Shown: positions 19,216 through 52,671 of the stretch, in pieces
Layout: every line of letters begins with the position of its first letter
How positions within the stretch are numbered: position 1 is the first letter of the stretch
Assembly: GCA_023261505.1 (NCBI GenBank)
Contig: JAHFOV010000005.1
Coordinates: 6,322-60,691, forward strand
Reading direction: 5' to 3'
Source: Planctomycetota bacterium
Lineage (GTDB): Bacteria; Planctomycetota; Brocadiia; Brocadiales; Bathyanammoxibiaceae
DNA length: 54,370 nucleotides
Notes under the pieces: model-generated
Seen by the model: the letters and a program-made list of their open reading frames with translations, nothing else
Database searches by the model: none
What the model was told of the DNA's origin: nothing
Position numbers and translations under genes: made by a program

Positions 19216-19270
19216 GTAGCCGCAGGCTTTAGCCTGCGTGAAATTTGCGCAACCTAAAGGTTGCGGCTAC
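19216..19270. repeat. REP doublet, family B (GTAGCCGCAGGCTTTAGCCTGCG), empty form
   Basis: Inverted doublet; related copies at 20800-20866 and 27709-27732. Confidence 0.85.
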
Positions 19271-23308: not shown

Positions 23309-23405
23309 GGACTAGTGAAAATAAAGAATACAGAATTCAGTAGTCAGAATTCAGAATATTCTCTATTCTGTATTCTGAATTCTAGTTCCTGACCCCTAAC
23401 CCCTA
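23292..23405. repeat. Nested 7-nt arrays: GGGGTTA arms enclosing a CAGAATT hairpin
   Basis: CAGGGGT TAGGGGG TAGGGAC TAG [AGAATAC AGAATTC ... TATTCTG TATTCTG AATTC] TAGTTCC TGACCCC TAACCCC TA. Confidence 0.8.
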
Positions 23406-34489: not shown

Positions 34490-34529
34490 ATTAAACTTGT
34501 CATTCTGAGTCCGCCTCAGGCGGAACAGC

Positions 34530-34774: not shown

Positions 34775-34837
34775 CGCCAAAGCGCAAGGCGCCACAGATG
34801 CGTGGTACGCGACTTTAGTGTCGCCCTAGAGAAACCA

Positions 34838-34952
34838 ACGTGCCAGACAAGTCATTCCAGAGATCCACCAAAAAGATAGGCGGATTCGCTTAATTCGGAT
34901 TCGCCAATCATTGTGGCGAACAAATCCACTTGCGGCGTGACTGGCACGCTAC
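34838..34952. repeat. REP carrying a nested 89-bp composite insert (34852-34940)
   Basis: Host ACGTGCCAGACAAG^CTGGCACGCTAC; the 57-bp core at 34864-34920 is shared with the other copies. Confidence 0.82.
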
Positions 34953-34963
34953 ATTACACAACT

Positions 34964-35202
34964 TCCCCCGCTCCTGGCAGTTCGTAAGGGTGAGATTAGG
35001 TGGAAGCTGACGTCATACCTCCACATTTATACGCGGTAGGCGGGTAACCTCCGCAAATTTTGAAAGAGCTTTAAGGCCTTACACCTTTTACAGCCTTAAG
35101 ATGGTGGTTCACCCACAGGCCTTTGATAACGAGCATCCCCAAGATGTCTCCTTATCTAGCTCAACGGCACCCTTCACGAATCACTGCCAGGGAGCAAGGG
35201 GA
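34964..35202 (-). ncRNA. ssrS: 6S RNA-like ncRNA (longer than usual, about 240 nt)
   Basis: About 28-bp interrupted closing stem (CCCTTGCTCCCTGGCAGTGATTCGTGAAGGGTG / CACCCTTACGAACTGCCAGGAGCGGGGGA); 5' arm resembles 6S; TATAAT on the minus strand at 35207-35212, just upstream. Confidence 0.5.
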
Positions 35203-35416
35203 TAAAATTATACTATAAGTTTACCACCTTTTTTTCAAAATGGCAACCTGGATGAAAAACTTTTTTGTAAACCTTTGGGCTAACTACACTTATGTAAACA
35301 AATAAACAGTTAACTACATCAAGCTTAGGGTATGGTGGAGGCTTTGCACCTGTACATTTGTAGTCAAAAATTAAAATGAGACCGCGCTGCAAAAGCAGCA
35401 AAATTGCATGTTTAAT

Positions 35417-35557
35417 GTAGCCGCACCCTTTTATGGGTGCGTATAACGCAGGCTAAAGTTCGCCATAGGCGAATCTGTTCGCCACAAAAATTGGCGAATC
35501 CGAAATAAGCGAATCCGCCTATCTTTTTGGTGGACCTCAGGCATGACCTGCGGCTAC
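35417..35557. repeat. Family B REP doublet carrying a nested 88-bp composite insert (35459-35546)
   Basis: Removing the insert restores CGCAGGCTAAAG^CCTGCGGCTAC as at 20844-20866. Confidence 0.88.
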
Positions 35558-35594
35558 CCTTAAATTTGTGATTAGACTACTTTTTCAGAAGTCT

Positions 35595-36467
35595 CTACTT
35601 CTTGAAAAAATCCCTCCCCAGGGCTGTCCTTGAGTAGTAATAGAGGTACTGCTGGGCATAACCTCCATAGTTGCCAAAGTAGTCCCTAGCGAAGGAGTTA
35701 ATCAATTTAGGTGAAACTTTTTGGCCCTTAAAATAAAAGGTGCGTAATGCCCTCTCTATCCATCTATCTACAGGAAAGGCCTCTACAAAGCCCAGGGAAA
35801 ATAGGAGTACACAATCCGCCACCTTTTCTCCTACCCCTGGCAGTTCCATTAATCTCCCCTTCGCCTCAGTATAAGGCAATGACTTCAAGGATTCTAAAAA
35901 ACGCCTGTCCGCAGTCCGAGAAATCTCGCAAATGTAATTAGACCTAAAGCCCAGGCCTGTTTCTTTGAGCAGGGGCACGGCATGCCGCGCCGCTACGTTT
36001 CTTACATCGTCAGGTTCCGGCAGGCTGTACCCCTTGACCTCGCCCAGGCGAACTTCTCTTCCGAATGCCCTGGCCAGGCCATCCAGACATCTCTGTATCT
36101 TTGGGATGTTAGAGGCAATAGAACAGATATAGGATAAGAGACAGTCCCAGGGGTCTTGTCTTATAAGCCTGAGGCCGTAGTACAAGTGGAAGGCCTTCTT
36201 AGTGTACCTGTCCTGTGGTATCTCAGCTAATATATCTTTTAGAGCGGTATCAAGAGAAAAAAAATGTCTAATAAAATCCTTATCTGCCCCTGAAAACTCC
36301 AGTCGGTCGCTATCCTGTCTTACCCTAAAAAATTTATTTCCTGAATGGATGTAGTACCAATCCCCCACCCTTTTGTATCTGAAGAACTGTCCACACTCCA
36401 TTGTGTGGATTAGATGAAAATCTCTCACCTTAACAGAAGATGTCTGTTCAATAGATTTTTTAATCAA
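35595..36467 (-). CDS. 8-oxoguanine DNA glycosylase (OGG1-like HhH-GPD)
   Basis: MECGQFFR, LRLIRQDPW, GLGFR, LPGVGEKVADC, FPVD, GYAQQYLY. Confidence 0.9.
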   Translation of the reverse strand: MIKKSIEQTSSVKVRDFHLIHTMECGQFFRYKRVGDWYYIHSGNKFFRVRQDSDRLEFSGADKDFIRHFFSLDTALKDILAEIPQDRYTKKAFHLYYGLRLIRQDPWDCLLSYICSIASNIPKIQRCLDGLARAFGREVRLGEVKGYSLPEPDDVRNVAARHAVPLLKETGLGFRSNYICEISRTADRRFLESLKSLPYTEAKGRLMELPGVGEKVADCVLLFSLGFVEAFPVDRWIERALRTFYFKGQKVSPKLINSFARDYFGNYGGYAQQYLYYYSRTALGRDFFKK

Positions 36468-36814
36468 CGTCTTTTGATAGTGGAGAGGTTTACTGAATTT
36501 TTATACTTGCAAGTCTTTCTAAAAATACGATTTAAGTTTTCTTAGGATAGAAACATTAAATGTATTACAAGCCTGTGTTAAGTAAAACTAATTTCGCATA
36601 AAAAATCTTACGAAAACTTACGCTCTCCAATCTTATTGATAGAGTGAGTCTTATAAATATTATACAGTTTATAATTAAAGGTCAGTTGAAAATTCTAATA
36701 CCTTTTGTTTTGACATTCCATAATTTTCTAGTAACATGCGTATCGAAAACTTGCGAAGCCTACCGTAGAGGATACGATGCCCGCAGAGAGTTTTCTAACT
36801 TTTAGGGTGGCGGT

Positions 36815-38200
36815 TTGGGACATAGTAACAATGAACTCTGGGCCAAAGTCTTAGAAAATATCCAGAATCAGGTTGGCCCTTTTACCTTTAATCTCTGGTT
36901 CAGGAACACAGAACTCCTTTCCTGTTGCAGTGGCCGCTGCGAGATAGGCGTACCTAACTCCTTCACAGGTGTGTGGCTCCAGAGACATTTCCTGTCCGTA
37001 ATACAAGAAAAGCTTGCTAATGCCATAGGAAAGGGTGTGGAAGTTGGGTTCTCCATTAACGGTAATAATCCCGAACTTTCTCAGGCAGTTTGCAATGTTC
37101 CTAGTGAGGCAGCAAAGGAAGAATCCCAGGTAAACAATAAAGGCATAAAGGACCAGGCCCCTCTCCCGCTACCTTCGAGGGTCTATAGGCTTGAGGATTT
37201 CATAGTAGGGCCTTCTAACCAGCTCGCCTATGTTTCAGCACTGGAGATTCTAAAGGATTCCAGGCCTTCTAATTTCAACTCCCTGTTCATATACGGCCCG
37301 GTTGGACTAGGGAAGACCCATATCTTACAAGGCATATGGAATTTCTTTAAGGAAGGGGGTCAGCCCCTAAAAGCAGTATACATGCCGGCTGAAGACTGGA
37401 CTAATGAGTTTATTCAAGCCCTTAAGGGTGGAAAGGTTGAAGACTTCAGGCGTAAGTATAGAAAAGTGGATGTCTTGCTTATGGATGATGTACATTTCCT
37501 CTCCAGTAAAGAGGGCATTCAGGAGGAGCTTACCCATACTATAAACTCCTTGGCCCATGCCTCCAAGAGGATTATTTTTGCCAGTGACGCCCATCCAAAG
37601 CTAATAAGGGAACTTAAAGAGAGTCTGGCGAATCGCATGATGGGCGGAATGATTGCGGAGATACATCCACCAGATTTTAGTACTACCTTTGCCATTGTTA
37701 AAGCAAAAGTTGAAAAGCTTGGACACAATTTTTCTGAAGAAGTATTGCAATGCATGGCTGAAGGTCTTAAAGGACGCAGTATAAGAGGGATTGAGAGCAC
37801 GCTGACCGCAATACTTGCCCATACAGTTACCTATAAAAAAGAAGTAGATGTAAAGCTTGTTAAGGAAGTTCTGACCCAGTTATTTGGCCAGAAGAGGAGA
37901 CAGGTGAGCCTGGAAGATATAGGGCTAGTAATTAGGAACCACTTTAATCTTACCGCCCACGAATTACATTCCCCAGAAAGAAGGCGCTCCCGCCTCCTTC
38001 CCAGGCGGCTTTGTTGTTATTTTGCCAGGATGCTGACTAATTATTCACATGAAGAAATAGGTCGCCATTTCGGTAACAAAAAGCACACTTTTTGTGTAAC
38101 TTCTATAGCGAAAATGAAAATAAGGCTTGAAAAAGATGTTGAATTCCTTAAACTTGTGGAAAAACTGCAGGGAGAAATAACGCGCAGGACTTTTGTCTAG
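36815..38200 (+). CDS. dnaA: DnaA-family replication initiator (divergent paralogue)
   Basis: Domain I (FNLWF...VPNSF), F.VGPSN.LA, GPVGLGKTH, LMDDVHFL, atypical domain IV. Confidence 0.85.
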   Translation: MGHSNNELWAKVLENIQNQVGPFTFNLWFRNTELLSCCSGRCEIGVPNSFTGVWLQRHFLSVIQEKLANAIGKGVEVGFSINGNNPELSQAVCNVPSEAAKEESQVNNKGIKDQAPLPLPSRVYRLEDFIVGPSNQLAYVSALEILKDSRPSNFNSLFIYGPVGLGKTHILQGIWNFFKEGGQPLKAVYMPAEDWTNEFIQALKGGKVEDFRRKYRKVDVLLMDDVHFLSSKEGIQEELTHTINSLAHASKRIIFASDAHPKLIRELKESLANRMMGGMIAEIHPPDFSTTFAIVKAKVEKLGHNFSEEVLQCMAEGLKGRSIRGIESTLTAILAHTVTYKKEVDVKLVKEVLTQLFGQKRRQVSLEDIGLVIRNHFNLTAHELHSPERRRSRLLPRRLCCYFARMLTNYSHEEIGRHFGNKKHTFCVTSIAKMKIRLEKDVEFLKLVEKLQGEITRRTFV

Positions 38201-38486
38201 AGACGATTCTAAGAACTTTAAAATGAATAGCTTACGCACCTGAATGAATATCTAAGCTTTTTATTCAAAATTGACGTTTATTTTATTAAAAATTCACCAT
38301 TTTTGACCATTTTTCACACATTTTAGGTAATATTTTGCTAAGGGGGGTAAGGGGGGGAACGGCTGGAGATTATAATTTTATATCTGTGATAAGGCACAAC
38401 TCTGGCAGCATTGCACCTTCTTCCTTTGCAGATTTTATATTAATTGAGACTGTCTTACCTCATCACGGACTTGCGAAGAAAGATCC

Positions 38487-39560
38487 TTGAATATTAACAA
38501 CCGGCTTCACCTTTTACAGCAGAAAATAGCTAAGAAAGGCCTGGAAGGGCTTGTTATTACAAAACTCCCTAATATAAGGTATTTAAGCGGCTTCACAGGC
38601 TCAGAGGCACTCATCCTCCTTTCCATGGACAAGTCCATTTTTCTTACTGATTTCCGTTATATCGAACAGGCTCAAGGAGAATGCAGAGGCCTGGAAATAG
38701 TAGAAAGAAAAAAACCCGCCATCAAGGCCCTGGTGAACTTGGTGAAAAAACTGCGGCTAAAGGTGCTGGGTTTTGAATCTGAGTCATTGACTTTTGCTCA
38801 GTATTCGGAGCTCAAGTCAAAGGTAAGAAAAGTGATACCTGTAAAAGGAATGGTAGAAGAGATGAGGGAGGTGAAGGAAGAAGAGGAAATAAATTTAATA
38901 AGGGGCGTATTGAAAGTGACAGAGCAGGCCTTTGAAAAGGTGTTAAAGGATATTAGCCCCGGTCTGACAGAGAAGCAGATTGCCAACAGATTAGAGTTTA
39001 ACATGAAGGAGGGCGGGGCTGAAGGAACATCCTTTGACACGATATGTGCAGTGGGAGAAAGGGCCTCTCTGCCCCACGCCCACCCGTCGGATGTAGCAGT
39101 TAAGCCTGGAGTTGGCCTCCTGATAGACTGGGGTGCAAAGTGGATGTCATATAATTCTGACTTGACAAGGGTTCTATTCCTTAATAGAATCTCACATCAG
39201 GCTCGAAAGATATACCAGATTGTGAAAAAGGCCCAAAGCCTTGCCATTGAAATGGTAAGGGAAGGTGTGAGTGCAAGGGAAGTAGACCTGGCAGCCAGGA
39301 GGTATATAGAGAGTCAAGGCTACGGTAAAAATTTTGGTCACGGCCTTGGGCATGGTATTGGTCTAGAGGTTCATGAAAGCCCCCGTATATGCAAAACTAA
39401 CCGAAAACCTCTTAAAGCGGGGATGGTTATTACCATAGAACCAGGAATATACTTGCCTAAGTGGGGAGGTGTGAGGATAGAGGATATGGTGCTCGTAAAG
39501 AAGGCGGGTTGTGAAGTCTTGAGCCATACCCCAAAAGCACTAGAAGCGGTAATACTGTGA
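38487..39560 (+). CDS. Xaa-Pro aminopeptidase (M24)
   Basis: RYLSGFTGS, TDFRY, YNSDLTR, HGLGHGIGLEVHE, TIEPGIY, GVRIED. Confidence 0.93.
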   Translation: MNINNRLHLLQQKIAKKGLEGLVITKLPNIRYLSGFTGSEALILLSMDKSIFLTDFRYIEQAQGECRGLEIVERKKPAIKALVNLVKKLRLKVLGFESESLTFAQYSELKSKVRKVIPVKGMVEEMREVKEEEEINLIRGVLKVTEQAFEKVLKDISPGLTEKQIANRLEFNMKEGGAEGTSFDTICAVGERASLPHAHPSDVAVKPGVGLLIDWGAKWMSYNSDLTRVLFLNRISHQARKIYQIVKKAQSLAIEMVREGVSAREVDLAARRYIESQGYGKNFGHGLGHGIGLEVHESPRICKTNRKPLKAGMVITIEPGIYLPKWGGVRIEDMVLVKKAGCEVLSHTPKALEAVIL

Positions 39561-39614
39561 CACCTTATGAAGACGGAAAGAATTTATAGCCTGAGCAAGA
39601 GGGCTTTTAGAAGT

Positions 39615-40079
39615 ATGGAGACTATGAATAAAATAAAAGAGCTCATCTCTTTGATGAACACCAACAACCTTGTAGAAATTGAAGTTCAGGAGGATGACCT
39701 CCGTATAAAGGTGAGGCGCGGCGACGGTATCCAACACTCTGTCCTCCCCGCCCATCAGCTTACTGGTGTCGCTGAGGAAAGACAACCCCTCCTGACGCAG
39801 AAGGACAACCTCCTCGCTATATCTTCTCCCATGGTTGGTACTTTCTACAAGGCTCCTACACCTGGGGCAAAACCTTTTGTTGAAGCAGGTGATACGGTAG
39901 AACCTGAATCGGTAGTTTGTGTCATTGAAGCCATGAAGATTATAAATGAAATTAAGGCAGAACTATCTGGTAAGATAGTAGAGGTACTAGTGGAGGACGG
40001 GAAAGCAGTGGAGTATGGACAACCTCTCTTCAGGGTTTTACCTGTCTCACCTGAACAGTCAGCCCAACAACAGAGATAA
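39615..40079 (+). CDS. accB: Biotin carboxyl carrier protein
   Basis: [14 protein letters not shown] biotinylation motif; start uncertain (39567, 39615 or 39624). Confidence 0.93.
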
Positions 40080-40081
40080 AG

Positions 40082-41431
40082 ATGTTTTCTAGAATATTAG
40101 TTGCCAACAGGGGGGAAATAGCACTAAGAATTATCAGGGCTTGTCGTGAGCTCGGCATCGAGACCGTTGCAGTCTTCTCCAAAGCGGATGAAAATGCCAG
40201 ATACCTCAGACATGCCGATGACAGGGTATGCATAGGCCCTCCTCCATCTGAGCAAAGCTACCTCAATATCCCCAGCATTATCAGCGCAGCAGAAATTACA
40301 GATGTGGAGGCCATCCACCCAGGTTACGGATTCCTCTCTGAGTCCAGTCATTTTGCAGAAATCTGTGAATCCTCCAACATCACCTTTATTGGACCCTCCT
40401 CTAAAGCCATGCAGCTTATGGGCAACAAGTCTCAGGCCAGAAAGGTCGCCATAGAAAACAAAATACCCGTCATACCAGGCAGCGCCTCCACCATTGCCAA
40501 CCAGCAAGAGGCCCTGGATATTGCCCATAAGATAGGCTACCCTGTACTGATAAAGGCCGCCGCAGGCGGAGGTGGAAGGGGCATGAGGATAGCCCATAAT
40601 GATGCCAGCCTGGTGAATGCCTTGGCCGTGGCCCAGAGAGAGGCCGAGGCTGCCTTTAAAGATTCCTCTATTTACATTGAAAAATATATAGAACGTGCCC
40701 GTCATGTAGAGGTCCAGATACTGGCGGACCAATACGGTAATATGATGCACCTTGGGGAGAGAGACTGCAGTCTACAGCGCCGCCACCAGAAACTTCTGGA
40801 GGAAACTCCCTCGCCAGGTATAACGCCGCAACTAAGAGGGGAACTTTATAAGGCCGCCCTTAAGATAGCCAAGGCCGTGAACTATACTAACGTCGGGACC
40901 GTAGAGTTCCTGGTGGACGAGAATGGCAAGTTCTATTTTATTGAAATGAACACCCGCCTTCAGGTAGAACACCCAATTACGGAAATGGTCACGGGCATAG
41001 ACCTTGTAAAAGAGCAGATAAAGATTGCTGCTGGTGAACCATTAAAGTATCGTCAAAAACACGTAAGGTTTGATGGTGTTGCAATAGAGTGTCGCATATA
41101 TGCCGAGGACCCTGATAACGGGTTCAGACCTCATCCGGGAAGGATTTCCACGTATCATGTCCCTGGAGGGAAAGGCGTAAGGGTAGACTCCCACGTCCAC
41201 CAGGGGTATGAGATACCACCTTTTTATGACTCTCTTATCAGCAAGCTCATAGTGCACCAGGCCACACGTCAGGAGAGTATCGCCTGTCTCAAGAGGGCAC
41301 TAGAAGAGTACGTTATAGAGGGCGTAAAGACCACCTTACCTCTTCACATGAAACTCCTCAACCACACTAACTTCCTCAACGGAAATTTTACCACCACCTT
41401 TGTTGAAGGGCTGATGGAACGCGAGCAGTAG
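40082..41431 (+). CDS. accC: Biotin carboxylase
   Basis: [45 protein letters not shown]. Confidence 0.97.
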
Positions 41432-41455
41432 GGCAGCACTTCTCTAAAAGAGCTT

Positions 41456-41484
41456 GTAGGGGCAGGTTTCAAACCTGCCCCTAC
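41456..41484. repeat. Family A REP between convergent accC and rh50, possible terminator
   Basis: GTAGGGGCAGGTTTCAAACCTGCCCCTAC followed by TTTT. Confidence 0.85.
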
Positions 41485-41535
41485 TTTTAAACCCTTAAAC
41501 CTAATCTTGACCCCCTGGCCTCTATCTCTTTTGCA

Positions 41536-42711
41536 CTAGGCAAGGATTTCTTCCTCATCCGTGTATGGCACGCGCCGCCTGCCAAAGTAGGCTAGCACCT
41601 GCCCGGTAACGTAGCCTGTCACGAGTGCCAGCACGATTGCTATTATTATGCCTTTGAACTGATTATTGGCAGTTATTCCCGGCACCAAGAAAGCAGCAAT
41701 TATCCCACCCATAAGTCCTGGCCATCCGTGCAGGTTCGTTACTCCACAGGTATCTATTCCCTTTACCCAGTTCTGGAGGGCGGGCTGGATGGATACAAAA
41801 CCGATAGTGCTAAGAGTGCCTGCCAGTATCCCGATAATAAAGGCTGCAGGATGGCCAGCCGTGTCACAGGTGGCTCCTACACCAACGCCCCCTGCCAGCG
41901 CAGCATTGGCAATATCCCCAATGGCAATCTTTCCCCTGAGATTTGCCGAAACGATGTAGGTAGCTATAGTGGCCCCACAGAGTGCCAGGAACACGTTAAC
42001 TGCTGTAAAAGGTACCAGTTTCGGTTCGACCAGCCCCGCACAAAAACTGGGCCAGAAAAGCCACAAGACCATACTACCAAGCATGGAGAACTGGTCGCTG
42101 GTATGGTCTGCTTCTATAGGTGCAGTAAATTCCTCTTTGGTAGTCATAGTCATTACAACCGCTAACCCAAAGAGGGCACCAAAGGCATGTATTAATATAG
42201 AACCTCCTGTATCCACAAAGCCCCCTTTAGGGATAAGGCCTAACCCCGATTCCAACAGTATCCATTCATTTATCATATAACATGGAGTAAAGAGCAGTCC
42301 CAGGAGGAGGTACTGGGACATTTTCAGCCTCCCTAAAGGCGCCCCTGCACAGATAAGCAGGCTCGCCCCGGCAAATTCCGCCAGCAGGAGAGTGTCTACC
42401 TCACTCTTCGGTTCACCAATAAGCCCCTTGCTGCTTATGAATATGTATACAGGTACAGCAATGCTTACTAAAAGATAAGTAGCCGTTACGGCGCTACGTC
42501 CGTATTTCTTCACAAAAACCATAAGAAAACCGAATCCTACCAGTAACATGGCCATTACATGGATGGAGCGGTTATATTTTTGGACATCAACTATATGTTC
42601 TATGGCAGCTTCCGCTCCCTTCTTTTCTGTGGCCCACACGTTGGAAGTAGCCCACACTATCATCCCTGCCAGGAACAATGTTACTACTAATAAGAATGTA
42701 CCCTTACGCAT
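41536..42711 (-). CDS. Rhesus-type (Rh50) ammonium/gas channel, Amt/Mep/Rh family
   Basis: AMLLVGFGFLMVFV..YG, SILIHAFG, SD.FSMLGSMVLWLFWPSF, NAALAGGV, IDTCGV.NLHG: Rh-type rather than AmtB-type motifs. Confidence 0.88.
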   Translation of the reverse strand: MRKGTFLLVVTLFLAGMIVWATSNVWATEKKGAEAAIEHIVDVQKYNRSIHVMAMLLVGFGFLMVFVKKYGRSAVTATYLLVSIAVPVYIFISSKGLIGEPKSEVDTLLLAEFAGASLLICAGAPLGRLKMSQYLLLGLLFTPCYMINEWILLESGLGLIPKGGFVDTGGSILIHAFGALFGLAVVMTMTTKEEFTAPIEADHTSDQFSMLGSMVLWLFWPSFCAGLVEPKLVPFTAVNVFLALCGATIATYIVSANLRGKIAIGDIANAALAGGVGVGATCDTAGHPAAFIIGILAGTLSTIGFVSIQPALQNWVKGIDTCGVTNLHGWPGLMGGIIAAFLVPGITANNQFKGIIIAIVLALVTGYVTGQVLAYFGRRRVPYTDEEEILA

Positions 42712-43054
42712 CTTGACCTCCTCTGGATTAAACGCTTAATAAGAAGAAAAGAGCTATGGATAACACTTTATCACCAAAAGGCCTTCTGCTATGTAAAGGC
42801 CTCGTACCTCCCAGGCGGTTTACAGTTATAATCTTTAACAAGCTAACTAGCACACAGGCAGTTTAGGGCAAAATGGTACTCCTTTTGAAAAAAATATCAA
42901 GGGAAAATCTTTAATCTTGACATTGAGATTGCAGAGTATTATAGATGAGGCTCACGATAGTTTGTGTGTTAACTGGAATGCATCCGTCTACAGTGTAACG
43001 GAGGGTTTCATTGGAGACAACATTACTATATCTTAAAGCGGAGGAGGGAAAGCC

Positions 43055-43933: not shown

Positions 43934-44046
43934 ACAGCTTTGAATAAGGAAAGACCTTAGAAAATTTCCGCCAGCTAAACCATTCCACATTTTAAAACCT
44001 TGTAGGGTGCGTCAAGACGCACCTTACACCTACTACTTTCTGAATG

Positions 44047-44214
44047 GTCATTGCGAGCGGAGCGAAGCAATCTCATTATTAAAAGATAATACGTGGTTGT
44101 TCGCCAAGGCGAATCTGTTCGCCACAAAAATTGGCGAATCCGAATTAAGCGAATCCGCCTATCTTTTTGGCGGACCTCTGGCATGACTTCGGGGCTAACA
44201 CCCCTCGCAATGAC
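44047..44214. repeat. GTCATTGCGAG-type REP carrying a nested 87-bp composite insert (44100-44186)
   Basis: GTCATTGCGAG...CTCGCAATGAC ends; the insert is the near-exact reverse complement of 48252-48338. Confidence 0.88.
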
Positions 44215-44221
44215 AGAGTTC

Positions 44222-45763
44222 CTAACCTTCCCTTGGTGTAACAGTGGACTTAAAAAGACCCAGGTGAGGCTCCTTATAGGAATAGAGCCCATGGACACCA
44301 CCTTCCACCTGGGCGGAGGGGCTTCTGGTCTCAAATCGTAGGGTTCCATTGTAGAGGGCCTCATGGAGGTCCTGAATGGTCCTGCAGCCCAGATCCTGGA
44401 GGGCATGTTTTAGGCTCTGCATGAAGTATTCCATAAGGTCTACCACAGACCCCCTATCCATCACAGCACCAGAGACCCCCTGGGCCACTTTGATTTTATC
44501 TCCTTCCGAGAAATACCTCTTAGCCCCCCCTTCCTTCAGGGCCTCCATAGAGGCCATCCCTCTGTATTTTTTAAGTCTTACCCCACCCTCATAGAAGTAC
44601 TCCCCAGGGGCTTCGGCAGTTCCTGCAAGCAATGCCCCAAGCATTACGTTGCTAGCCCCTAAGGCCAGGGCCTTGGTGATATGGCCCAGATTGGAAACAC
44701 CCCCATCTGCTATCACAGGGATGTTACCGTAATTCCTTGCAAATTTGGCACAGTGGTAAACAGCAGAACCCTGCGGCCTGCCCACTGCAAGGGTCTCCTG
44801 AGTAATACATATACTCCCACTACCCATTCCTATCCTTAGGGCATCTACCCCTGCGTCAATCAGGTTCTGGCACTGTTGGGTCGTTACTACATTGCCGCCT
44901 ATGACTTCTATATGGGGGTACTTCTTTTTGATGTACTTAATCATGTTTATCTGGAAGACGCTGTCTCCCTGAGAAGAGTCTATAACTATCACATCCACTC
45001 CTGCCTTCACCAGCTCTTCCAGTCTCTCTCTATCCTCCTCTTTCGTAGATAGGGCTGCCCCTACAAGTAGCTGTTTTGTGGCATTCTTCGAGGAGTAAGG
45101 GAAGTCTTCATTCTTTAGAAGGTCTGTCCGACTCATAAGGGAGACGAGCCGCCCCTCTTTATCTACTATGGGGAGTTTGCCCTTTTTACACTCCTTGAGG
45201 ATTCGGTTGCCATCCTGAAGGGTTATTCCTAGCGGAGCCATGACCACTTCTTTGGTCATGACCTCCTTTACTTTGCGCTGGCGATTAGTCTCAAAACATA
45301 TATCCCTGTTGGTAACTATTCCTATGAGCTTAGAACCAAGCTTGCCATCCTCAGTGATGGGTATGCCAGAAAAGCCGTACGTTTTTTTAATCCTATCTAT
45401 ATCGGCAATAGTATTTTCTGGACTCAGGACTACAGGGTCGGTGATAAAGCCGTTTTCAAACCTTTTTACCAGCCTAACGTGTCTGGTTTGCTCCTCTATT
45501 GTATTGTTGTAATGAATGATACCTATACCCCCGCAAAGGGCCATGTAAATAGCCATCTTGGACTCGGTAACAGTGTCCATCGGGGAACTTACCGTGGGCC
45601 TCTTGAGTTTTAGGCTTCTGGTGAGGCGGGTTTCTAAATCTACCTCGTCCACACCAAAATTAATGTGACCTGGTAAGAGGATAAAATCATGGTAAGTAAG
45701 ACCTCCCTTGCTATCAAAGAAGGCCTCTGCGCTTAATCCGTTTCCACCGTTTTCGAATAACAT
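44222..45763 (-). CDS. guaB: IMP dehydrogenase (eukaryote-type signatures)
   Basis: [12 protein letters not shown] pair, [12 protein letters not shown] catalytic loop, IADGG, YRGM. Confidence 0.95.
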
Positions 45764-45803
45764 ATTTTTACACTCCTTGAAATTTATCTTTTATAAAGTA
45801 ATT

Positions 45804-48089
45804 CTATAACATACTGTAAGGGTCTACGTCTACAATAATCCTCATGCCACCTCTATTGCTTTTAGGCACTCCCTGTAAAATGCCTAAGGCTGACTGTAAC
45901 GCCTCCTTCTGTGGGGACCTTAGGCTCAACTGCCAGCGGAATTGGTTCTTGATTTTAGGGATAGGCGCCGGTGCTGGGCCCACCACCTCCACTTTCTGGG
46001 TATTGGCTTTCTCCCTCAACATATTTGCCAGCTTTTGGGCCTTATCCAGTACCCCTTCTGCTTTACGCCCCACAAGGACTATTCTGGCCATATAACCAAA
46101 GGGAGGATAGCCTAGCTCCCTGCGGTACTCCAGTTCTCTATCGGCGAAACCTTCATAGTCGTGGGCAGCCGCCTTTACGATAGCATATTGTTTAGGGCTA
46201 AAAGTCTGAATGACCACCTTACCCCCCTTTGGACCTCTACCTGTCCTACCTGCCACCTGTGCCAGGAGTTGGAAAGTCCTCTCACAGGCCCTGAAGTCTG
46301 GCATGTTCAATATGGTATCGGCCGAGATGACTCCCACCAGGGTGACATTGGGAAAGTCTAACCCCTTGGCAATCATCTGGGTCCCTACAAGGATCTGTAC
46401 CTCTCCCTTTTCAAAGGCCTTGAGTGCCTTTTCATGAACACCCCTCCCCTTCATAGTATCGCTATCCATCCTCAGCGCCTTATACCCGGGAAAGTAGTGT
46501 GCCAGCTCTTCCTCAATCCTCTCCGTGCCTAGCCCAAAATAATTCATCTTTGCCCCTGCACACTCCGGACAGCCTTCCGGAGGCTCCGCTTCAAAGGAGC
46601 AGTAATGGCATAAGGCACTGTGCCTTTTTTTGTGATAAGTCAGGGGTATGTCACACCTTTTGCACCTAAGAACGTAACCACACCTCATACAACTCACGAA
46701 GGGAGAAAAACCCCTGCGATTAAGGAAAAGGAGTGCCTGCTCTCCCCTTGCGAGGCAGTCTTTCATGTAAAGTTCTAGTTTTCTGGATACGAGCGTGGTG
46801 CGTCTGCCTTTGTGGAATTCTTCCCTCAAGTCCACTATTTCTACTTTGGGCATGGGGCGGTGTCCAATCCTCTGGCTGAGTATTGCCCTTTGGTACCTTC
46901 CCATCAAGGCATTAAAATAGGTTTCTAAAGAAGGCGTAGCAGAACCGAGAATAACTGTTGCCCCTTCCTCTCTTGCCCTCATAAGGGCTACTTCTCTGGC
47001 ATGATAACGTGGAGAGGTATCCTGTTTGTAAGTTACTTCATGTTCTTCATCTACCACTATCAGGCCCAGGTTCTCTACAGGGGCGAAGACGGCGGAGCGG
47101 GCTCCTATCACTACCCTGGCCTTCCCTTCTCTTATAGCCTGCCACTGCCTGTAACGCTCGGCCCCAGTAAGATTGCTGTGAAGGACGGCGACGTTATCAA
47201 AACGAGCGCTGAAGCGCTCCACGGCCTGCGGGGTAAGGGATATCTCTGGCACCAGGACTATCGCCCCACGCCCCATAGCCAGCACTTCTTCTATGGCCCT
47301 TAGATATACCTCGGTCTTCCCACTCCCTGTCACCCCCTGGAGGAGCACTACTGAAGGGGCAGGTTTCACACCTGCCCCTACAGAAAGTTTCCTTATAAGG
47401 CTTAGGGCCTGCTCTTGCTCGGGGGTAAGTTCAGGTCCGCATGAGGCGGGTGACAATTTCTCGTCGGCAAATATTCCACTAGGGGCAGGTGTGAAACCTG
47501 CCCCTACATTGGGCTGGTCATATATCTCCACGAACCCCTTCCTGACGAGCTCCTTTAACCCACCCAGTTTACAACCGCTCTGTTGGGAAAGTTCTCTAAG
47601 GGGGATGCCATTGTTAGACTTTAAGAGTACTTCCAGGGCACTGGCCTGCCTGGGGGCCTTTTTTTTGAACTCTTCTAGCGTCTTAAGGACGGTATCTTTG
47701 TCTTTTATGAGTCTAAGGGCTTTGAAGGTCTGTCGGGAGTGGCCCTGCCACTTTAGCCCCTTCTTTACAGCAAAAGGAAGGGCCGCCTCCACAGCCTCTC
47801 CCCAGGTACATTGATAGTACTGGGCTATCTCCCGGGTAATGCGCAGCATCTTCTCCCCGAGGAGTGGCTGGCGGTCCAGTACCTCTTTTATTTCCTTTAG
47901 TTCCATGGCTGCGGGTGAATCGGGGAAACCCACACAGTAGCCATCCACCAGCCTGTGCCCTAAGGGCACTTTTACCCGGCTTCCAATCCTTAGGACGGGC
48001 ATAAGGGTGTCGGGGACCTTATAATATAAGGTCTTGTAAAGAGGGGCGTTAACTACCACCTCGACAAAATTAGGATACACCTCCGCCAC
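45804..48089 (-). CDS. priA: Primosomal protein N'
   Basis: GVTGSGKTEVY, LVPEISLTPQ, DEEHE, Cys-rich region, GTQMIAKGLDFP, QVAGRTGR; start uncertain. Confidence 0.96.
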   Translation of the reverse strand: MAEVYPNFVEVVVNAPLYKTLYYKVPDTLMPVLRIGSRVKVPLGHRLVDGYCVGFPDSPAAMELKEIKEVLDRQPLLGEKMLRITREIAQYYQCTWGEAVEAALPFAVKKGLKWQGHSRQTFKALRLIKDKDTVLKTLEEFKKKAPRQASALEVLLKSNNGIPLRELSQQSGCKLGGLKELVRKGFVEIYDQPNVGAGFTPAPSGIFADEKLSPASCGPELTPEQEQALSLIRKLSVGAGVKPAPSVVLLQGVTGSGKTEVYLRAIEEVLAMGRGAIVLVPEISLTPQAVERFSARFDNVAVLHSNLTGAERYRQWQAIREGKARVVIGARSAVFAPVENLGLIVVDEEHEVTYKQDTSPRYHAREVALMRAREEGATVILGSATPSLETYFNALMGRYQRAILSQRIGHRPMPKVEIVDLREEFHKGRRTTLVSRKLELYMKDCLARGEQALLFLNRRGFSPFVSCMRCGYVLRCKRCDIPLTYHKKRHSALCHYCSFEAEPPEGCPECAGAKMNYFGLGTERIEEELAHYFPGYKALRMDSDTMKGRGVHEKALKAFEKGEVQILVGTQMIAKGLDFPNVTLVGVISADTILNMPDFRACERTFQLLAQVAGRTGRGPKGGKVVIQTFSPKQYAIVKAAAHDYEGFADRELEYRRELGYPPFGYMARIVLVGRKAEGVLDKAQKLANMLREKANTQKVEVVGPAPAPIPKIKNQFRWQLSLRSPQKEALQSALGILQGVPKSNRGGMRIIVDVDPYSML

Positions 48090-48146
48090 AATTATTGGCG
48101 AATCCGCCTATCTTTCGGCAAGCTCAAGACAAGCCTTTTTGGCGGA
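48082..48146. repeat. Partial composite module stack with a further 23-bp insert
   Basis: TCCGCCACAATTATTGGCGAA + TCCGCCTAT[CTTTCGGCAAGCTCAAGACAAGC]CTTTTTGGCGGA. Confidence 0.75.
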
Positions 48147-48240
48147 TTTCTGCCTCCCAGGTCTTTTTAAAAAGCTTAACATACCTGAGGGGTTATGTCA
48201 ATTGGAGAAAGATTCCAGAGGTTATACTAAACCCCTTCGT

Positions 48241-48350
48241 GTAGCCGCAGGTCGTGCCAGAGGTCCGCCAAAAAGATAGGCGGATTCGCTTAATTCGGAT
48301 TCGCCAATTTTTGTGGCGAACAGATTCGCCTTGGCGAACTTTGGCCTGCG
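48241..48350. repeat. Family B REP carrying a nested 87-bp composite insert (48252-48338)
   Basis: GTAGCCGCAGG[...]CTTTGGCCTGCG. Confidence 0.88.
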
Positions 48351-48424
48351 TTGTAAATCGAAATGAAAAGGCTAGACACATTGGAAGGAGACGGGTAAAC
48401 TGTCAAGCCATATCGGACGTATAC

Positions 48425-48510
48425 GCAGGGACAGACAGTTCGGCTGAGCTCACTGTCGAAGCCTTTAGGTCTGTCCACTTCTTTGGACAGGGCTGAAGCC
48501 CTGTCCCTAC
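48425..48510. repeat. REP doublet with a nested 26-bp TTCGGCTGAGCTCA element
   Basis: GCAGGGACAGAC[AGTTCGGCTGAGCTCACTGTCGAAGC]CTTTAGGTCTGTCC...GGACAGGGCTGAAGCCCTGTCCCTAC. Confidence 0.72.
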
Positions 48511-48514
48511 ATTT

Positions 48515-49507
48515 TTGTCTGGAGGCAGTGTGAAGAGGACAAGGAGCGCCAGGATAAAGGAAGTAGTGCTTGACTACGTAATAGTTATTGCCCTTGTAGT
48601 AATGTCAATATACTATGCCATAGATGCCCGTGGCTTTGCAACGCTGGCGAATTTCACAAATATCCTCAATCAGAATTCCGTTTATATTATCCTGGCAGTG
48701 GGGATGACGCTGGTTATCCTCACAGGCGGGATAGACCTCTCCGTTGGTTCCATACTGGCCTTGAGCGCAGTGGTCTGTGCAGATGTGGCCAAGCGTATGG
48801 AGGTAGTTGTCGGGAGTGGCCCTGCCGCCTGGGGTATTATTCCCATCGCCTGGCTGGTGGCCCTGGCGATAGGCTCAGCCCTGGGGGCCTTTAATGGCGT
48901 CATGATTATTACCTTTAGGATTCCACCCTTTATAGCCACACTGGCCATGATGACAATGGCCCGAGGGGCTGCAAATATTTATTGCGATGCAAGGCCCATA
49001 GGTAATCTCCCGGATGAGTTTAAGCTTATTGGCACCGGATCCCTGGGCACCATACCTATACCCGTCTTTATCATGGCCATCCTTTCTGCCACTATTTTTG
49101 TAATTGCCCGTTATACAGTTTTTGGGCGTTACGTTTATGCTGTGGGAGGCAATGAGGAAGCTGCCAGGTTATCAGGGATAAATGTCAAAGAGGTGAAGTT
49201 CTGGGTTTATGTGGTGAGTGGGATGTTCTCGGGTATATGCGGGATAATCCTGGCCAGTCGTCTGGGGTCAGGGGACCCGAAACTGGGTTTCATGTATGAA
49301 CTAATTGCTATTGCTGCCGTGGTGTTGGGAGGTACAAGCCTCATGGGAGGGAGGGGATCCGTGATAGGTACTGTCTTTGGAGCCCTTTTTATCGGCGTGC
49401 TAGAAAATGGACTACTACTCAAAGGCGTTCCCACCTTTTATCAATGGGTGGTAAAGGGGCTAGTGATATTAGTGGCGGTGATAGTAGACCAGTTGAAGAA
49501 GCGTTAA
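48515..49507 (+). CDS. Sugar ABC transporter permease (RbsC-like)
   Basis: GMTLVILTGGIDLSVGS, IPPFIATL, AVGGNEEAARLSGI, YELIAIAAVVLGGTSL.GG.G. Confidence 0.9.
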   Translation: MSGGSVKRTRSARIKEVVLDYVIVIALVVMSIYYAIDARGFATLANFTNILNQNSVYIILAVGMTLVILTGGIDLSVGSILALSAVVCADVAKRMEVVVGSGPAAWGIIPIAWLVALAIGSALGAFNGVMIITFRIPPFIATLAMMTMARGAANIYCDARPIGNLPDEFKLIGTGSLGTIPIPVFIMAILSATIFVIARYTVFGRYVYAVGGNEEAARLSGINVKEVKFWVYVVSGMFSGICGIILASRLGSGDPKLGFMYELIAIAAVVLGGTSLMGGRGSVIGTVFGALFIGVLENGLLLKGVPTFYQWVVKGLVILVAVIVDQLKKR

Positions 49508-49613
49508 ATAAAATCTAATTTCAAATTACAGATTACAAATTTAAGATATTAAAGAAGAGATGACATGAACAAAAAGGAAAATATTGTTTATTTTTTGACC
49601 AGGGGCGCCGCTT

Positions 49614-50402
49614 ATGTCAGTAAAGGTTGAGGTGGGAAAAGCTGTAGATACTGGCCTGGTTCGCAGGCAGAATGAAGATAGTATCTTGACTACGGAGTTA
49701 ACGCTTAGCGCCGGGGATGGTACATCCTTTGGTCTTTACGCTGTGGCAGATGGAATGGGTGGTCTTGAGGCAGGTGAGGTTGCAAGTGACCTTGCACTCA
49801 GGGTTCTGGCTGATAGTGTAACCAGGGGTCTCCTCCTGCCCCAGGCGCAAGGAGAACTATCCGTTTTAGATGAGGCATTTCTGTCGAGAACGCTCTTATA
49901 TGCGCTAAAGGTAGCCAATGGCTGGGTTCATTCACAAAGTCAAGCTAAAGGCATTGTCATGGGTACAACCCTGGCAGGGGCGTTAATAATGAACGATATG
50001 GCTTATATCTTCAATGTAGGAGACAGCCGGGTTTATCTCTTGGAAGGTAAGCATCTTCGGCAGGTAACTAAAGACCATTCCCTCGTGGCCGAACTGGTGG
50101 CTGCTGGAAAGATTACCCCTGAAGACATTTACACCCATCCGCAACGGAACATTATCACCCGCTGTCTGGGGACACATGATAGCGTTGAGGTTGACCTCTT
50201 TGTAGAAAGGCTAAAATCAGGCATGTCTCTCCTTATCTGTTCCGATGGACTATGGGAGATGGTGCGAGACGATGAGATGAAGAATACCCTGTTAAAGGCA
50301 GATAAACCCCAGGCCGCTTGTGACCAATTGGTGAGAAAGGCTAACGAGAATGGTGGCGTTGACAACATCTCAGTTATTATTGTGAGAATGAGAGAAAGTT
50401 AA
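49614..50402 (+). CDS. PP2C-family Ser/Thr phosphatase (Stp1-like)
   Basis: R..NED, VADGMGG, MGTT, NVGDSR, CSDGL, GGVDNI. Confidence 0.93.
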   Translation: MSVKVEVGKAVDTGLVRRQNEDSILTTELTLSAGDGTSFGLYAVADGMGGLEAGEVASDLALRVLADSVTRGLLLPQAQGELSVLDEAFLSRTLLYALKVANGWVHSQSQAKGIVMGTTLAGALIMNDMAYIFNVGDSRVYLLEGKHLRQVTKDHSLVAELVAAGKITPEDIYTHPQRNIITRCLGTHDSVEVDLFVERLKSGMSLLICSDGLWEMVRDDEMKNTLLKADKPQAACDQLVRKANENGGVDNISVIIVRMRES

Positions 50403-50417
50403 GCCTGATTTTTCAGC

Positions 50418-51143
50418 CTAACCATTCCCTGAGTCCAGCCAGCCCTTCTTCCATTTCGTTAGGATAAACCACTGCACTATTATGCAGGCGGAAAATATAC
50501 CTATTAAGTAAAACCATACATCAAAAGCCCCTTTAATCTTTATCTCTTTGACTAACTCGCAGGCACACCATAAAAGTAAGACTGTAGAATAGGTATTTTG
50601 CTCTTTCCTGAAGAAACGCTTCCACGACCACTTTTCCCACGGAATTGCCTTGTACTGATTTGACTTGAAAGAAAGAAAGAATCTGGGCACGGTTTCCCTA
50701 TACTTATCGTATTCCGCTTCAAATGTTTTGCTAAGAAATTTTTCTTCACTGGCTACTACGGCGTATGTAATGAGCCAAAAACCTAAAACACTTACCACTG
50801 CTAGATATAAATTAGAAAATACAGCAGCGAATCCCAGGCAGATAAAAAAGTTGCCCAGGTACCTGGGATTTCTGGTATAGGCGTATGCACCTGAAACAAG
50901 GAGTCTTCTTGTCTTTGTTTCTTCATTTCCATTACGGACCCCTCGGCTTCCAGCCGCTATTGCCACAGCCCTAATCGCTTCTCCCATTAAAATAGAAATC
51001 AACCCCGCCAGGTCTACGAGCCTCTCTATTGTCATACTTCCAAGGACGAATTTGTCTCTCATGTAGAAAAAGGCAATGATAAGAAAAGGTAAGGGCAATA
51101 TACCTCTGAATTTGTCGAGACCCTTGAGCCTCTTTAATGTCAT
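50418..51143 (-). CDS. Isoprenylcysteine carboxylmethyltransferase / PEMT-family membrane protein
   Basis: LLVSGAYAYTRNPRYLG...EEKFL...Y..Y...VPRF. Confidence 0.82.
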   Translation of the reverse strand: MTLKRLKGLDKFRGILPLPFLIIAFFYMRDKFVLGSMTIERLVDLAGLISILMGEAIRAVAIAAGSRGVRNGNEETKTRRLLVSGAYAYTRNPRYLGNFFICLGFAAVFSNLYLAVVSVLGFWLITYAVVASEEKFLSKTFEAEYDKYRETVPRFFLSFKSNQYKAIPWEKWSWKRFFRKEQNTYSTVLLLWCACELVKEIKIKGAFDVWFYLIGIFSACIIVQWFILTKWKKGWLDSGNG

Positions 51144-51238
51144 AAAATTGTCTCTTAATTTAAAAAGGATTTTATTAAATCATGAAGGCCTTGGTATGTA
51201 ATCTATCCTGATGTTTATTTTGCTATTTATTAAAAAAA

Positions 51239-52606
51239 CTACTCTGTTGCCCCTACTTTATAGCCCTTTCTTCCGAGGAGGGCGAAGGTATTGACCTTTC
51301 CAGCCTCCACTCCAGGCTGGTCAAAGGGATTTATACCGAAGAGTTTTCCAGCCAGGGCCGTTTGAACCTGGAACATGTAGAGGAGTCCCCCTACATGGAA
51401 GGCCGTGATTTCAGGGAGGTATATAGTGTAGTTAGGGCGTCCTGCCTGGGTAAGGGCTAGTTCTGTCCCTCTACGTTCTGCCTCCATAAGCCCTGCCAGG
51501 GTATGTCCAGAAAGATATTCAAAATCCGTTTCAGGGGATAGGGGGATTTTCACCCTTGATTTAAACTTATCGACTGCCAGGAAGGTTATGACCTTATCAA
51601 AAGGTCCTTCCATGTAGAGCTGGAGCTGAGAGTGCTGGTCGGTGGGTCCCACAGCTTTTACGGGTGTGGGACCGCAGTGAATAATTTTACCTTTAACGGA
51701 GAACTTCTTGCCCAGGCTCTCAGCCCAGAGCTGGCAAAACCATTCTCCAACAGCCTTCAGGGCCGCTGAGTAGGGCATTAGCACCGTAATATGTTTACCT
51801 TTTTTGTAGCTTAAGTATTGAAGGCAGGCCCCAAGCACGGCAGGATTTTCTTCTACAGTCTCTTTTTGGCACTGGAGATCCATCTCCGCCGCGCCTGCAA
51901 GGAGTGCATTAATATCGATACCGCTCACGGCCGCAGAAAGTAGACCCACAGGGCTAAGAACTGAATATCTACCACCTACCCCTTTAGGAATACACAGCTT
52001 TTCATAACCCTCCTTTGCTGCCAGCCTTCTCAAGGCCCCGTCTTCAGGGTCTGTAGTGGTTATGATATGCTTTGTGTAGGCGTTCCCCAGGCTTTTCTTC
52101 AGCATCTCCTTGACTATTAAAAACTGGGCCACGGTCTCCACTGTGGCACCAGATTTAGAAATAACATTGAAGACAGTTTGCTTCAGGTCAAGGGTCTCAA
52201 GCAACCCGGCAAAAAGGTCTGGGTCTATAGTGTCTATAACATGAATTCTAGGCGTAGGGGCGTATCGCAATACGCCCCTACTTTTCCCCTCCTGGCTGTG
52301 ATAGGGTGGGTTAAGAGCCTGATGCAGGGCTATATTACCGAGCGCAGAACCCCCAATACCCAGCACTACAAAATCTGTCATCCAAGACCTTAATTCATCG
52401 GCAAGTTTTTTTATCTTTTCAGCAACTTCCTTTTGATAAGGCAGGTCCAGGAATTGATGCTGTCCGTTAGACCTCTCCTCCTTCAGCTCCTGGAGGTAGC
52501 GTAGGGCCTGCCTTCCTGGCTTTTGCAACTCAGCGGGGGTCGCGCCGTGCCTGCCCACGGTATCCCTGAGCATATTTCTAAAATCAAGCCGTAGTATTTC
52601 TTTCAT
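51239..52606 (-). CDS. pgi: Glucose-6-phosphate isomerase
   Basis: GIGGSALG, ISKSG.T.ET, GGRYSVLS, QLWAESLGK, DQHSQLQLY, PFDQPGVE.GK. ATG 52606; the ORF-track extension upstream is repeat-derived. Confidence 0.95.
   Translation of the reverse strand: MKEILRLDFRNMLRDTVGRHGATPAELQKPGRQALRYLQELKEERSNGQHQFLDLPYQKEVAEKIKKLADELRSWMTDFVVLGIGGSALGNIALHQALNPPYHSQEGKSRGVLRYAPTPRIHVIDTIDPDLFAGLLETLDLKQTVFNVISKSGATVETVAQFLIVKEMLKKSLGNAYTKHIITTTDPEDGALRRLAAKEGYEKLCIPKGVGGRYSVLSPVGLLSAAVSGIDINALLAGAAEMDLQCQKETVEENPAVLGACLQYLSYKKGKHITVLMPYSAALKAVGEWFCQLWAESLGKKFSVKGKIIHCGPTPVKAVGPTDQHSQLQLYMEGPFDKVITFLAVDKFKSRVKIPLSPETDFEYLSGHTLAGLMEAERRGTELALTQAGRPNYTIYLPEITAFHVGGLLYMFQVQTALAGKLFGINPFDQPGVEAGKVNTFALLGRKGYKVGATE
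52254..52281. repeat. GTAG-type REP, in frame in pgi
   Basis: GTAGGGGCGTATCGCAATACGCCCCTAC; encodes RGVLRYAPT. Confidence 0.82.
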
Positions 52607-52617
52607 ATCAGAAAAGC

Positions 52618-52671
52618 GTAGCCGCAGGTCATGCCAGAGGCAGATTCGCCTATGGCGAACTTTAGCCTGCG
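52618..52671. repeat. Family B REP with a 31-bp insert (intermediate nesting state)
   Basis: GTAGCCGCAGG[TCATGCCAGAGGCAGATTCGCCTATGGCGAA]CTTTAGCCTGCG; degenerate REPs follow to about 52780. Confidence 0.88.

Follow-up and report, generated by a model that had tools for sequence, protein, structure and literature searches.

Nested hairpin insertions within REP sequences, and within one another, in an uncultured planctomycete of the order Brocadiales

Hairpin modules and their hosts in the window

The DNA considered here, referred to as the window, is a 54,370-nucleotide stretch of contig C64 (GenBank JAHFOV010000005.1) from the 2.5-Mb metagenome-assembled genome (MAG) G000 of an uncultured groundwater bacterium. 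This MAG comprises 147 contigs, is rated 96.5% complete and has a GC content of 46%. The window contains repetitive extragenic palindromic (REP) sequences and other palindromic repeats that hold short hairpin units: a 31-nt element of two hairpins, which we call E31, and a 57-nt element (57-mer) of three hairpin modules, M3, M2 and M1, found inside E31. E31 carrying the 57-mer is termed a composite, and a caret marks a junction throughout.

The unfilled target is seen at 19216-19238 (+ strand), where a REP of the family REP-A, GTAGCCGCAGG^CTTTAGCCTGCG, is read without any insert; it is one of 61 empty copies in the genome, and folds with a 7-bp stem and a 4-nt loop (z -4.4). At 52618-52671 (+) the same REP holds E31 at 52629-52659, being one of nine REP-A copies with a 31-nt insert, and in its predicted fold as single-stranded DNA (ssDNA) two branch hairpins emerge while the REP stem is preserved (z -3.5). 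Both loci agree with their description in an earlier sequence-only reading of this DNA, which had also placed 57-nt inserts within E31 at 48241 and 35417. At the first of these positions the claim stands: the REP-A at 48241-48350 (+) carries an 87-nt composite (48252-48338), in which E31 is split at AGG^CAGA by the 57-mer M3-M2-M1 (48264-48320). Position 35417, however, is the start of a neighboring REP of another subtype (35417-35441), which forms a doublet with the actual filled copy, a reversed REP-A at 35447-35557 (-) with an 88-nt composite (35459-35546; 57-mer at 35478-35534). When folded as ssDNA, filled REPs retain their own stem and the inserts form hairpins at its side (z -3.5 to -4.0).

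Composites also lie in two further hosts, unrelated as that reading had claimed. An 87-nt copy at 44100-44186 (-), just downstream of guaB, is inserted at GAAG^CAA in one arm of host B (~44048-44215), which is a long palindromic repeat and not a GTAG REP. The other copy, at 34852-34940 (+), lies in a GTAGCGTGCCAG-type REP and is a degenerate composite of 89 nt, positions 15-89 of which show 92% identity; the head of this REP occupies 34941-34952 on the minus strand. In addition, a 65-nt hairpin doublet at 48082-48146 (-), consisting of an M1 variant and an M3 that holds an extra 23-nt insert, lies in unique DNA in the leader of priA. Solo 15-mer hairpins, TCCGCCTCAGGCGGA, at 16201-16215, 34509-34523 and 53481-53495 (no strand assigned) have the module frame and are not demonstrably insertions.

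The two adjacent hairpins of E31 follow the pattern TC-R-TGCC-nnA-GGCA-GA + TYCGCC-nnn-GGCGRA, of about 31 nt. Within the 57-mer, M3 and M1 measure 21 nt each and M2 measures 15 nt; since M3 resembles the reverse complement of M1, the 57-mer can also be folded as one long imperfect palindrome. M3 and M1 without M2 constitute a 42-mer, an inverted doublet of two 21-nt hairpins, and the position between them is occupied either by M2 or by an alternative 42-nt module. Further pieces of 28, 23 and 42 nt were found inside module hairpins, the 28-nt piece at the AGG^C step in whichever of the two E31 hairpins holds it. The stems of E31 covary: pair 4-14 is TA in 51 copies, CG in 6 and another combination in 2, and pair 18-30 is TA in 43, CG in 9 and another in 7. 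The overall Watson-Crick fraction of E31 is 0.874, a value reached by none of 500 shuffles (shuffle maximum, 0.845). The hairpin frame common to the modules, CGCC-N2-12-GGCGRA, which the sequence-only reading had already pointed out, was counted 32 times in the window, where 0.83 would be expected, and none of 100 shuffles reached 32. Moreover, a control with the E31 pattern read backwards gave no match in any of 92 genomes of the order, compared to up to 49 matches forwards. Taken together, the excess of the frame and the empty reversed control mean that chance is no explanation for these elements. Rfam gave no match at gathering score in the window, and none at E<=1 in 34800-35600.

Filled and empty states, junctions and spread

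The intermediate states reported from the window alone were confirmed by following REP-A through the whole genome. Among 84 head-tail pairs of REP-A, 61 were empty, nine contained the 31-nt E31 and six the full 87-88-nt composite. There was one insert of 59 nt (E31 with 28 nt within a hairpin), one of 73 nt (E31 with M3-M1 and no M2), one of 40 nt (a REP fragment plus E31) and one of 13 nt (a partial duplication), and the remaining four pairs had long spacers or N gaps. All REP-A inserts occupy a single phosphodiester bond, in one orientation throughout.

An unbiased scan was carried out for pairs of 11-mers that are adjacent somewhere in the genome and 8-250 nt apart elsewhere, with tandem cases removed. 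It returned 1117 events, whose length peaks at 15, 28, 30-32, 42, 57 and 88 nt correspond to the modules. E31 was present in at least six unrelated host families, each of which also has empty copies: REP-A, GTAGCGTGCCAG^CTTGTCTGGCACG, GTAGCGTGCGAG^CTTGCCTCGCACG, GTAGGGGCGTATTG^CAATACGCCCCTAC, host B (CCCCGAAG^CAATCTC) and a repeat of the form CACCCCCACCCTAC^CCTCCCCC. The composite was found in three unrelated hosts. In one REP doublet family the states coexist as an empty copy (C5:5526), a copy with E31 only (C84:2747) and a copy with a composite containing the same E31 variant (C83:10853), and filled and empty paralogues have long flanks in common.

The exactness of the junctions was assessed by shifting the cuts on each side of an insert by -5 to +5 positions and searching for the joined 7+7-mer elsewhere in the genome. 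Exact excision restored an existing 14-mer for 18 of 28 E31 copies, 11 of 17 42/57-mers and 6 of 9 composites; shifted cuts restored only 0-8, the higher values falling on the diagonal expected from one-base ambiguity. As the signal peaks at the exact cuts, no target duplication accompanies these inserts, in agreement with what had been read from the window. In this way the picture of non-autonomous elements lodged in REP hairpins and in their own hairpins extends, with precise filled and empty states, to the genome as a whole.

The sequence-only reading had also assigned almost all junctions to G^C steps. This is mostly so: among 47 solo E31 copies, distributed over 29 distinct 10-nt junction contexts, 34 have a G^C junction, and a C stands after the junction in 43 and a G before it in 37. 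The target of E31 is mostly an (A/G)G^C(T/A) step beside the loop of GTAG REPs or of another palindromic repeat, with some 20 other sites. The generalization fails for M2, which looks like a local duplication and not like an insertion at G^C, because it never occurs alone and is bordered by a 9-nt direct repeat, GCGAATCCG. The solo 15-mers of the type TCCGCCnnnGGCGGA, found at 178 loci in the genome, likewise gave an excision signal of only 6/178, which is background, and were rejected as insertions. That all modules were inserted one after another is therefore too sweeping: precise filled and empty states were found for E31, the 42/57-mers and the composite, and not for M2 or the solo 15-mers.

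Two joints in contigs of the public runs were also discarded as alternative forms of a locus: one that skips the 57 nt at 35477-35535 is most simply the 52618 locus, with which it has an identical 32-nt stretch in common, and another with 28 extra letters belongs instead to the paralogue at C5:5526.

Comparison of orthologous loci for empty and filled sites, which had been proposed as a check, gave a clear result at two places. Metagenome contigs were scanned with the GuaB protein, yielding two relatives with 87% amino-acid identity and ~80% DNA identity. After guaB, one of them (L038) has the empty sequence GTCATTGCGAGGGGCGTTAGCCCCGAAG^CAATCT, whereas the window has its 87-nt composite exactly between GAAG and CAA; the other (L037) carries host B in full and without an insert. 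The L038 sequence upstream of priA is GGGAGGCAAAAGGTG and lacks the 65-nt doublet, which in the window lies between GGGAGGCAGAAA and GGTG, at an A^G step, and so comes between the ribosome-binding site GGGAGG and the conserved GTG at which priA starts. This leader element is spanned by independent contigs from two samples. E31 itself was present in none of 80 metagenome loci.

Two observations concern these loci in their own right. Between the ribosome-binding site and the start of priA the relative has 6 nt, and folding of the hairpins may reunite both signals for translation in the window organism. Host B is a palindrome of about 100 nt, GTCATTGCGAGG...CGAAGCAATCTC...GAGATTGCTTCG...CTCGCAATGAC (3900-3990 in L037), which is present in relatives too; within it are sub-hairpins and a symmetric pair of G^C target steps.

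The loops of 13 composites, found by strict pattern, differ greatly in diversity. Pairwise diversity per site is 0.41 and 0.51 in the two E31 triloops, compared to 0.03, 0.05 and 0.00 in M1, M2 and M3 (loops of 9, 7 and 9 bases, respectively). Loop variants of E31 in composites are those of solo E31 from the same host family, and 42-type copies lacking M2 are diverged. A near-invariant 57-mer within highly diverse E31 copies therefore points to recent spread into older copies. The simplest history has four steps: E31 would be old, an M3-M1 doublet would have entered it, M2 would have arisen inside the doublet, and the resulting 57-mer would recently have spread into many different E31 copies. 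As an alternative, hypermutation limited to the triloops would account for the contrast between the loops of E31 and those of the 57-mer.

The distribution of E31 was determined in the order-wide set of 92 genomes, in which the relatives belong to genera other than that of the window organism. G000 has 28 copies of the pattern, and all 13 other genomes of its family have between 1 and 49; in the remaining families it occurs in 14/28, 1/47, 0/2 and 1/1 genomes, giving 30/92 overall. Relatives have REP-A with E31, and also REP-A with a composite that has another middle module. Beyond the genome, the modules were sought as M1 followed by TCYGCC in one genome per species, which gave seven stretches, all in MAGs of Planctomycetes/Brocadiales and in two Omnitrophota MAGs; at seven distant M3-M1 loci no conserved neighbor gene was found. 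The Omnitrophota-labelled copies (L015, ~6863; L018, ~6268) have an M3-M1-type pair, TCCGCC-N9/10-GGCGGA, directly followed by TTCGCCAAT-N-GGCGAA. Horizontal spread, shared ancestry and binning error are all possible explanations for their presence there.

Mobility and the search for an enzyme

The filled and empty states, the target preference, the order of nesting, the covariation of base pairs and the family-wide spread are all direct observations, and mobility of the elements is well supported. The account that we favor, and regard as reasonably probable, is that these are families of ultra-small, protein-less hairpin elements, mobile now or very recently, which move most likely through folded ssDNA by means of an enzyme supplied in trans, with a Y1/HUH enzyme as leading candidate. 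Folded ssDNA appears the most likely route because targets and elements are all hairpins and no duplication is produced, and the trans-acting enzyme would cut and rejoin the DNA at the junction. Some other enzyme is about as likely as a Y1/HUH enzyme of the REP-associated tyrosine transposase (RAYT) kind, and the Y1 single-strand route, taken by itself, must be called rather doubtful.

In agreement with the sequence-only reading, no candidate enzyme is encoded in the window or elsewhere on its contig; the Y1, tyrosine recombinase and weak IS110-like matches all lie on other contigs. In favor of the Y1 part, one RAYT-like gene exists in G000, the single Y1 match of the genome (60 bits against a curated cut-off of 80), which is split by in-frame REPs. 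The gene is located on contig C118 (L011, 1393-2223, minus strand); REPs of the GTAGGGGCGGACC type crowd its flanks and also occur in frame within it, both at the 5' end and in the stretch that separates the HUH motif from the tyrosine motif. TnpB and reverse transcriptase domains were not found in the 96.5%-complete genome, the IS110-like match scored 23.7 bits, under its cut-off, within a 667-aa frame, and the three tyrosine recombinases are presumably Xer-type housekeeping enzymes. In five relatives, 23 of the 25 Y1 loci returned were inspected. REP-A flanks five of them and REP-C/D flank two, so the host REPs are ordinary REPtron REPs. No module hairpins were found beside six IS200-type genes of the order.

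Several observations weigh against the favored account. The REPs that flank and interrupt the Y1 gene of G000 belong to a different family (GTAGGGGCGGACC-type), E31 flanks none of the 23 Y1 loci of the five relatives, where the flanking repeats are classical REPs, and a search for RAYT or TnpA-Y1 genes flanked by the modules, suggested earlier as a check, thus found none in either set. Of the 92 genomes, 87 have Y1 genes, among them all 47 of the family in which E31 is present in 1/47; because they are near-universal in the order, their co-occurrence with E31 is uninformative, and nomination of an enzyme by this means was dropped. According to PMC8266576, RAYTs are guided by GTAG and cleave C|T, or CA in one system, beside the REP, while the E31 junction as judged from sequence is G^C(T/A), one base off the published cut and inside the stem; in REP-A this placement of the junction is unambiguous. 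The proposal of an HUH/Y1 mechanism in the sequence-only reading was therefore not borne out by the flanks of the RAYT-like gene, by the Y1 loci of relatives or by the junction.

Orientation likewise speaks against the favored account. No association of E31 orientation was detected with GC skew (11/9 vs 13/12, p = 1.0, n = 45; skew here follows the coding strand, with a rho of 0.85, and no replication origin can be placed on the contigs) or with the local coding strand (p = 0.43, n = 28), and E31 is oriented like its flanking genes in 14 cases and opposite in 10. All REP-A copies have one orientation though both strands offer AG^C, so that many may descend from few insertions spread with the REP. 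Some 15-mers replace host loop bases in several REPs, for example GTAGCCGC[15-mer]TAGCCTGCG. Finally, no live filled/empty polymorphism was seen in the public runs, which consist of k-mer contigs that end inside repeats and give no spanning coverage of composites.

Some of these points can be accommodated if the elements are mobile and are moved by a non-Y1 enzyme or pathway, such as an unrecognized structure-specific recombinase or nuclease-ligase with hairpin loops as its substrate, or a repair process that mends broken loops with hairpin oligonucleotides. This alternative draws on the whole of the evidence for mobility, to which the missing link between E31 and Y1 genes, the junction at G^C and not at the published C|T, the lack of strand bias and the loop replacements can be added; against it, the genome search, which covered the Y1, TnpB, IS110, reverse transcriptase and tyrosine recombinase families, brought up no candidate gene, and we consider it unlikely, if well worth keeping in mind. 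The uniform orientation of the ~17 REP-A inserts, the long flanks common to filled and empty paralogues and the RAYT genes that host REPs have in relatives would also fit with no dedicated insertion mechanism at all, a few chance events having been amplified by copying of the host repeats and then by gene conversion among dispersed copies. Such amplification does not easily produce 29 junction contexts for E31, a composite in three unrelated hosts, a 65-nt doublet in unique DNA upstream of priA, or 57-mers nearly identical inside E31 copies that differ from each other, and we regard it as improbable.

Movement via reverse-transcribed RNA copies, a route reportedly proposed by Elhai et al. in 2008 for cyanobacterial elements discussed below, could be invoked on the grounds that composite-bearing transcripts are found among RNA contigs and that the single G-T mismatches of M2 and M3 could pair as wobbles if the elements were RNA. 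Nevertheless, M2 and M3 would require different strands for such pairing, the elements show no preferred orientation with respect to genes and, as said, the genome yielded no reverse transcriptase domain, which makes this route very improbable. That the elements are immobile, being either selected functional motifs (protein-binding sites, terminators or small RNAs) or assembly artefacts, is scarcely credible. Stems that covary around variable loops, and an M3-M1 pair conserved as far as Omnitrophota MAGs, could be expected of a selected motif; however, there is no Rfam match, gene association at the seven distant loci or strand preference, and selection alone is not expected to give precise filled and empty states in unrelated hosts. 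An artefact is contradicted by the same nested structures in independently assembled genomes, as well as by the priA element with its spanning contigs from two samples.

Likeness to known elements and other features of the window

To our knowledge, the small dispersed repeats (SDRs) of Nostoc and relatives, in 2008, are the one case in which mobile DNA shorter than about 50 bases has been proposed, and its mechanism was never found. Elhai et al. (Genome Res 18:1484) are said to have described in that year SDR families of 21-27 nt, some of them having a hairpin in common; these are frequently located in arrays of heptamers and are self-nested. SDR elements are reportedly confined to heterocyst-forming cyanobacteria. 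The likeness to the window elements lies in a length of tens of bases, a conserved predicted hairpin, precise site-specific and self-nested insertion, the lack of a protein and an enzyme still to be found. Heptamer tandem arrays are abundant in the window too, as in the SDR genomes. In contrast, the elements described here occur in Planctomycetota and Omnitrophota MAGs and target REP hairpins and G^C steps, they are built as doublets of hairpins, 31 and 42/57 nt long, and no reverse transcriptase was found in the genome. In PMC4390886 the insertion point of SDR5 is placed exactly between bases three and four of the cyanobacterial octamer HIP1, which is near-absent from G000 (6 occurrences, both strands counted). 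A cyanobacterial origin of G000, to which the heptamer arrays had seemed to point, was rejected on this scarcity of HIP1, on the GC content of 46% and on a module pattern with matches only in Planctomycetes/Brocadiales and Omnitrophota MAGs. The window elements thus display SDR-like behavior in another phylum and differ in targets, unit architecture and presumably sequences, so that they may be considered analogues of SDR elements at most. A literature search for such elements outside cyanobacteria returned nothing relevant among the papers that could be consulted.

With REPs, REPINs and their RAYTs the elements have in common short palindromes, folded ssDNA and the absence of target duplication, and the 42-mer, as an inverted doublet, resembles a REPIN (concept described in PMC3116915). 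E31 and the M modules nonetheless begin with TCRTGCC or TYCGCC and lack the GTAG head of the host REPs; they flank no Y1 gene and sit inside REP stems, and their junction, G^C, is not the C|T or CA at which RAYTs cut next to the REP according to PMC8266576. The IS200/IS605 family is characterized, in PMC8266576 and PMC6006769, by hairpin ends without terminal inverted repeats, no target duplication and insertion beside a short specific sequence. The window elements share these features with the family and with its protein-less derivatives, the palindrome-associated transposable elements (PATEs), the absence of duplication at E31 being shown by the offset test, but an autonomous copy with matching ends did not come to light, nor did TnpB, and the only Y1 gene is RAYT-like. 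An orientation bias with respect to replication (lagging-strand template), another trait of this group, was not detected in the comparisons with GC skew and coding strand given above. Typical PATEs are also about 10-fold larger than the window elements.

The bacterial interspersed mosaic elements (BIMEs) of Escherichia coli, mosaic REP clusters according to PMC3333891, resemble the window arrays as mosaics of palindromic units; BIMEs are side-by-side arrays, whereas the window modules are nested. REP loops are, according to work cited in PMC3116915, preferred targets of insertion sequences such as IS1397 and those of the IS1111 type. Unlike E31, these insertion sequences are of kilobase size, encode a transposase themselves and mostly produce short duplications. 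A classical miniature inverted-repeat transposable element has terminal inverted repeats and a target duplication, while E31 makes no duplication and its ends are separate hairpins, not inverted copies.

Tentatively, and with more doubt than confidence, we propose that the elements represent a previously unrecognized class of hairpin-only mobile DNA of 31-57 nt, a planctomycete counterpart of the SDRs, that would recognize the loop-side G^C of folded ssDNA hairpins (those of REPs and its own), nest within itself and depend on a trans-acting factor, either a Y1 enzyme that has been domesticated or a wholly new hairpin-specific DNA-joining activity. If this were true, sub-50-nt mobile DNA would, together with the SDRs, be a general bacterial phenomenon with a shared mechanism yet to be discovered. 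The system is tractable, with clean filled and empty states, a simple (A/G)G^C rule beside hairpin loops, a datable burst of the 57-mer and textbook REP hosts. Given these states, the target rule, the datable burst and hosts linked to RAYTs in sister genomes, the mechanism can be tested with oligonucleotides and a few recombinant proteins. The elements also matter for annotation, as they land in 5' leaders (e.g., that of priA) and gene-end repeats and break short-read assemblies.

Some further features of the window were recorded. Between two composites, at 34967-35143, a 177-nt metatranscriptome contig maps with a depth of 120, which may represent an abundant small transcript or a 5' leader; this interval matched no Rfam family, and neither of its strands gave a fold signal. 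Another REP family, TGTAGGGGCAGGTTTYAAACCTGCCCCTAC, has four copies (282-312, 41455-41485, 47352-47382 and 47478-47508), and a similar REP flanks a Y1 gene in the relative G008 (L126). Tandem arrays with a 7-nt period (TTTGTAA, ACTGCCT, AATTACA, TACTGCC and others) are common, often beside REPs, and are located at 4976-5011, 8829-8939, 16448-16568, 17336-17362, 17825-17891, 19061-19099, 23357-23383 and 27734-27781. They look similar to the heptamer arrays of heterocystous cyanobacteria, which host SDR elements.

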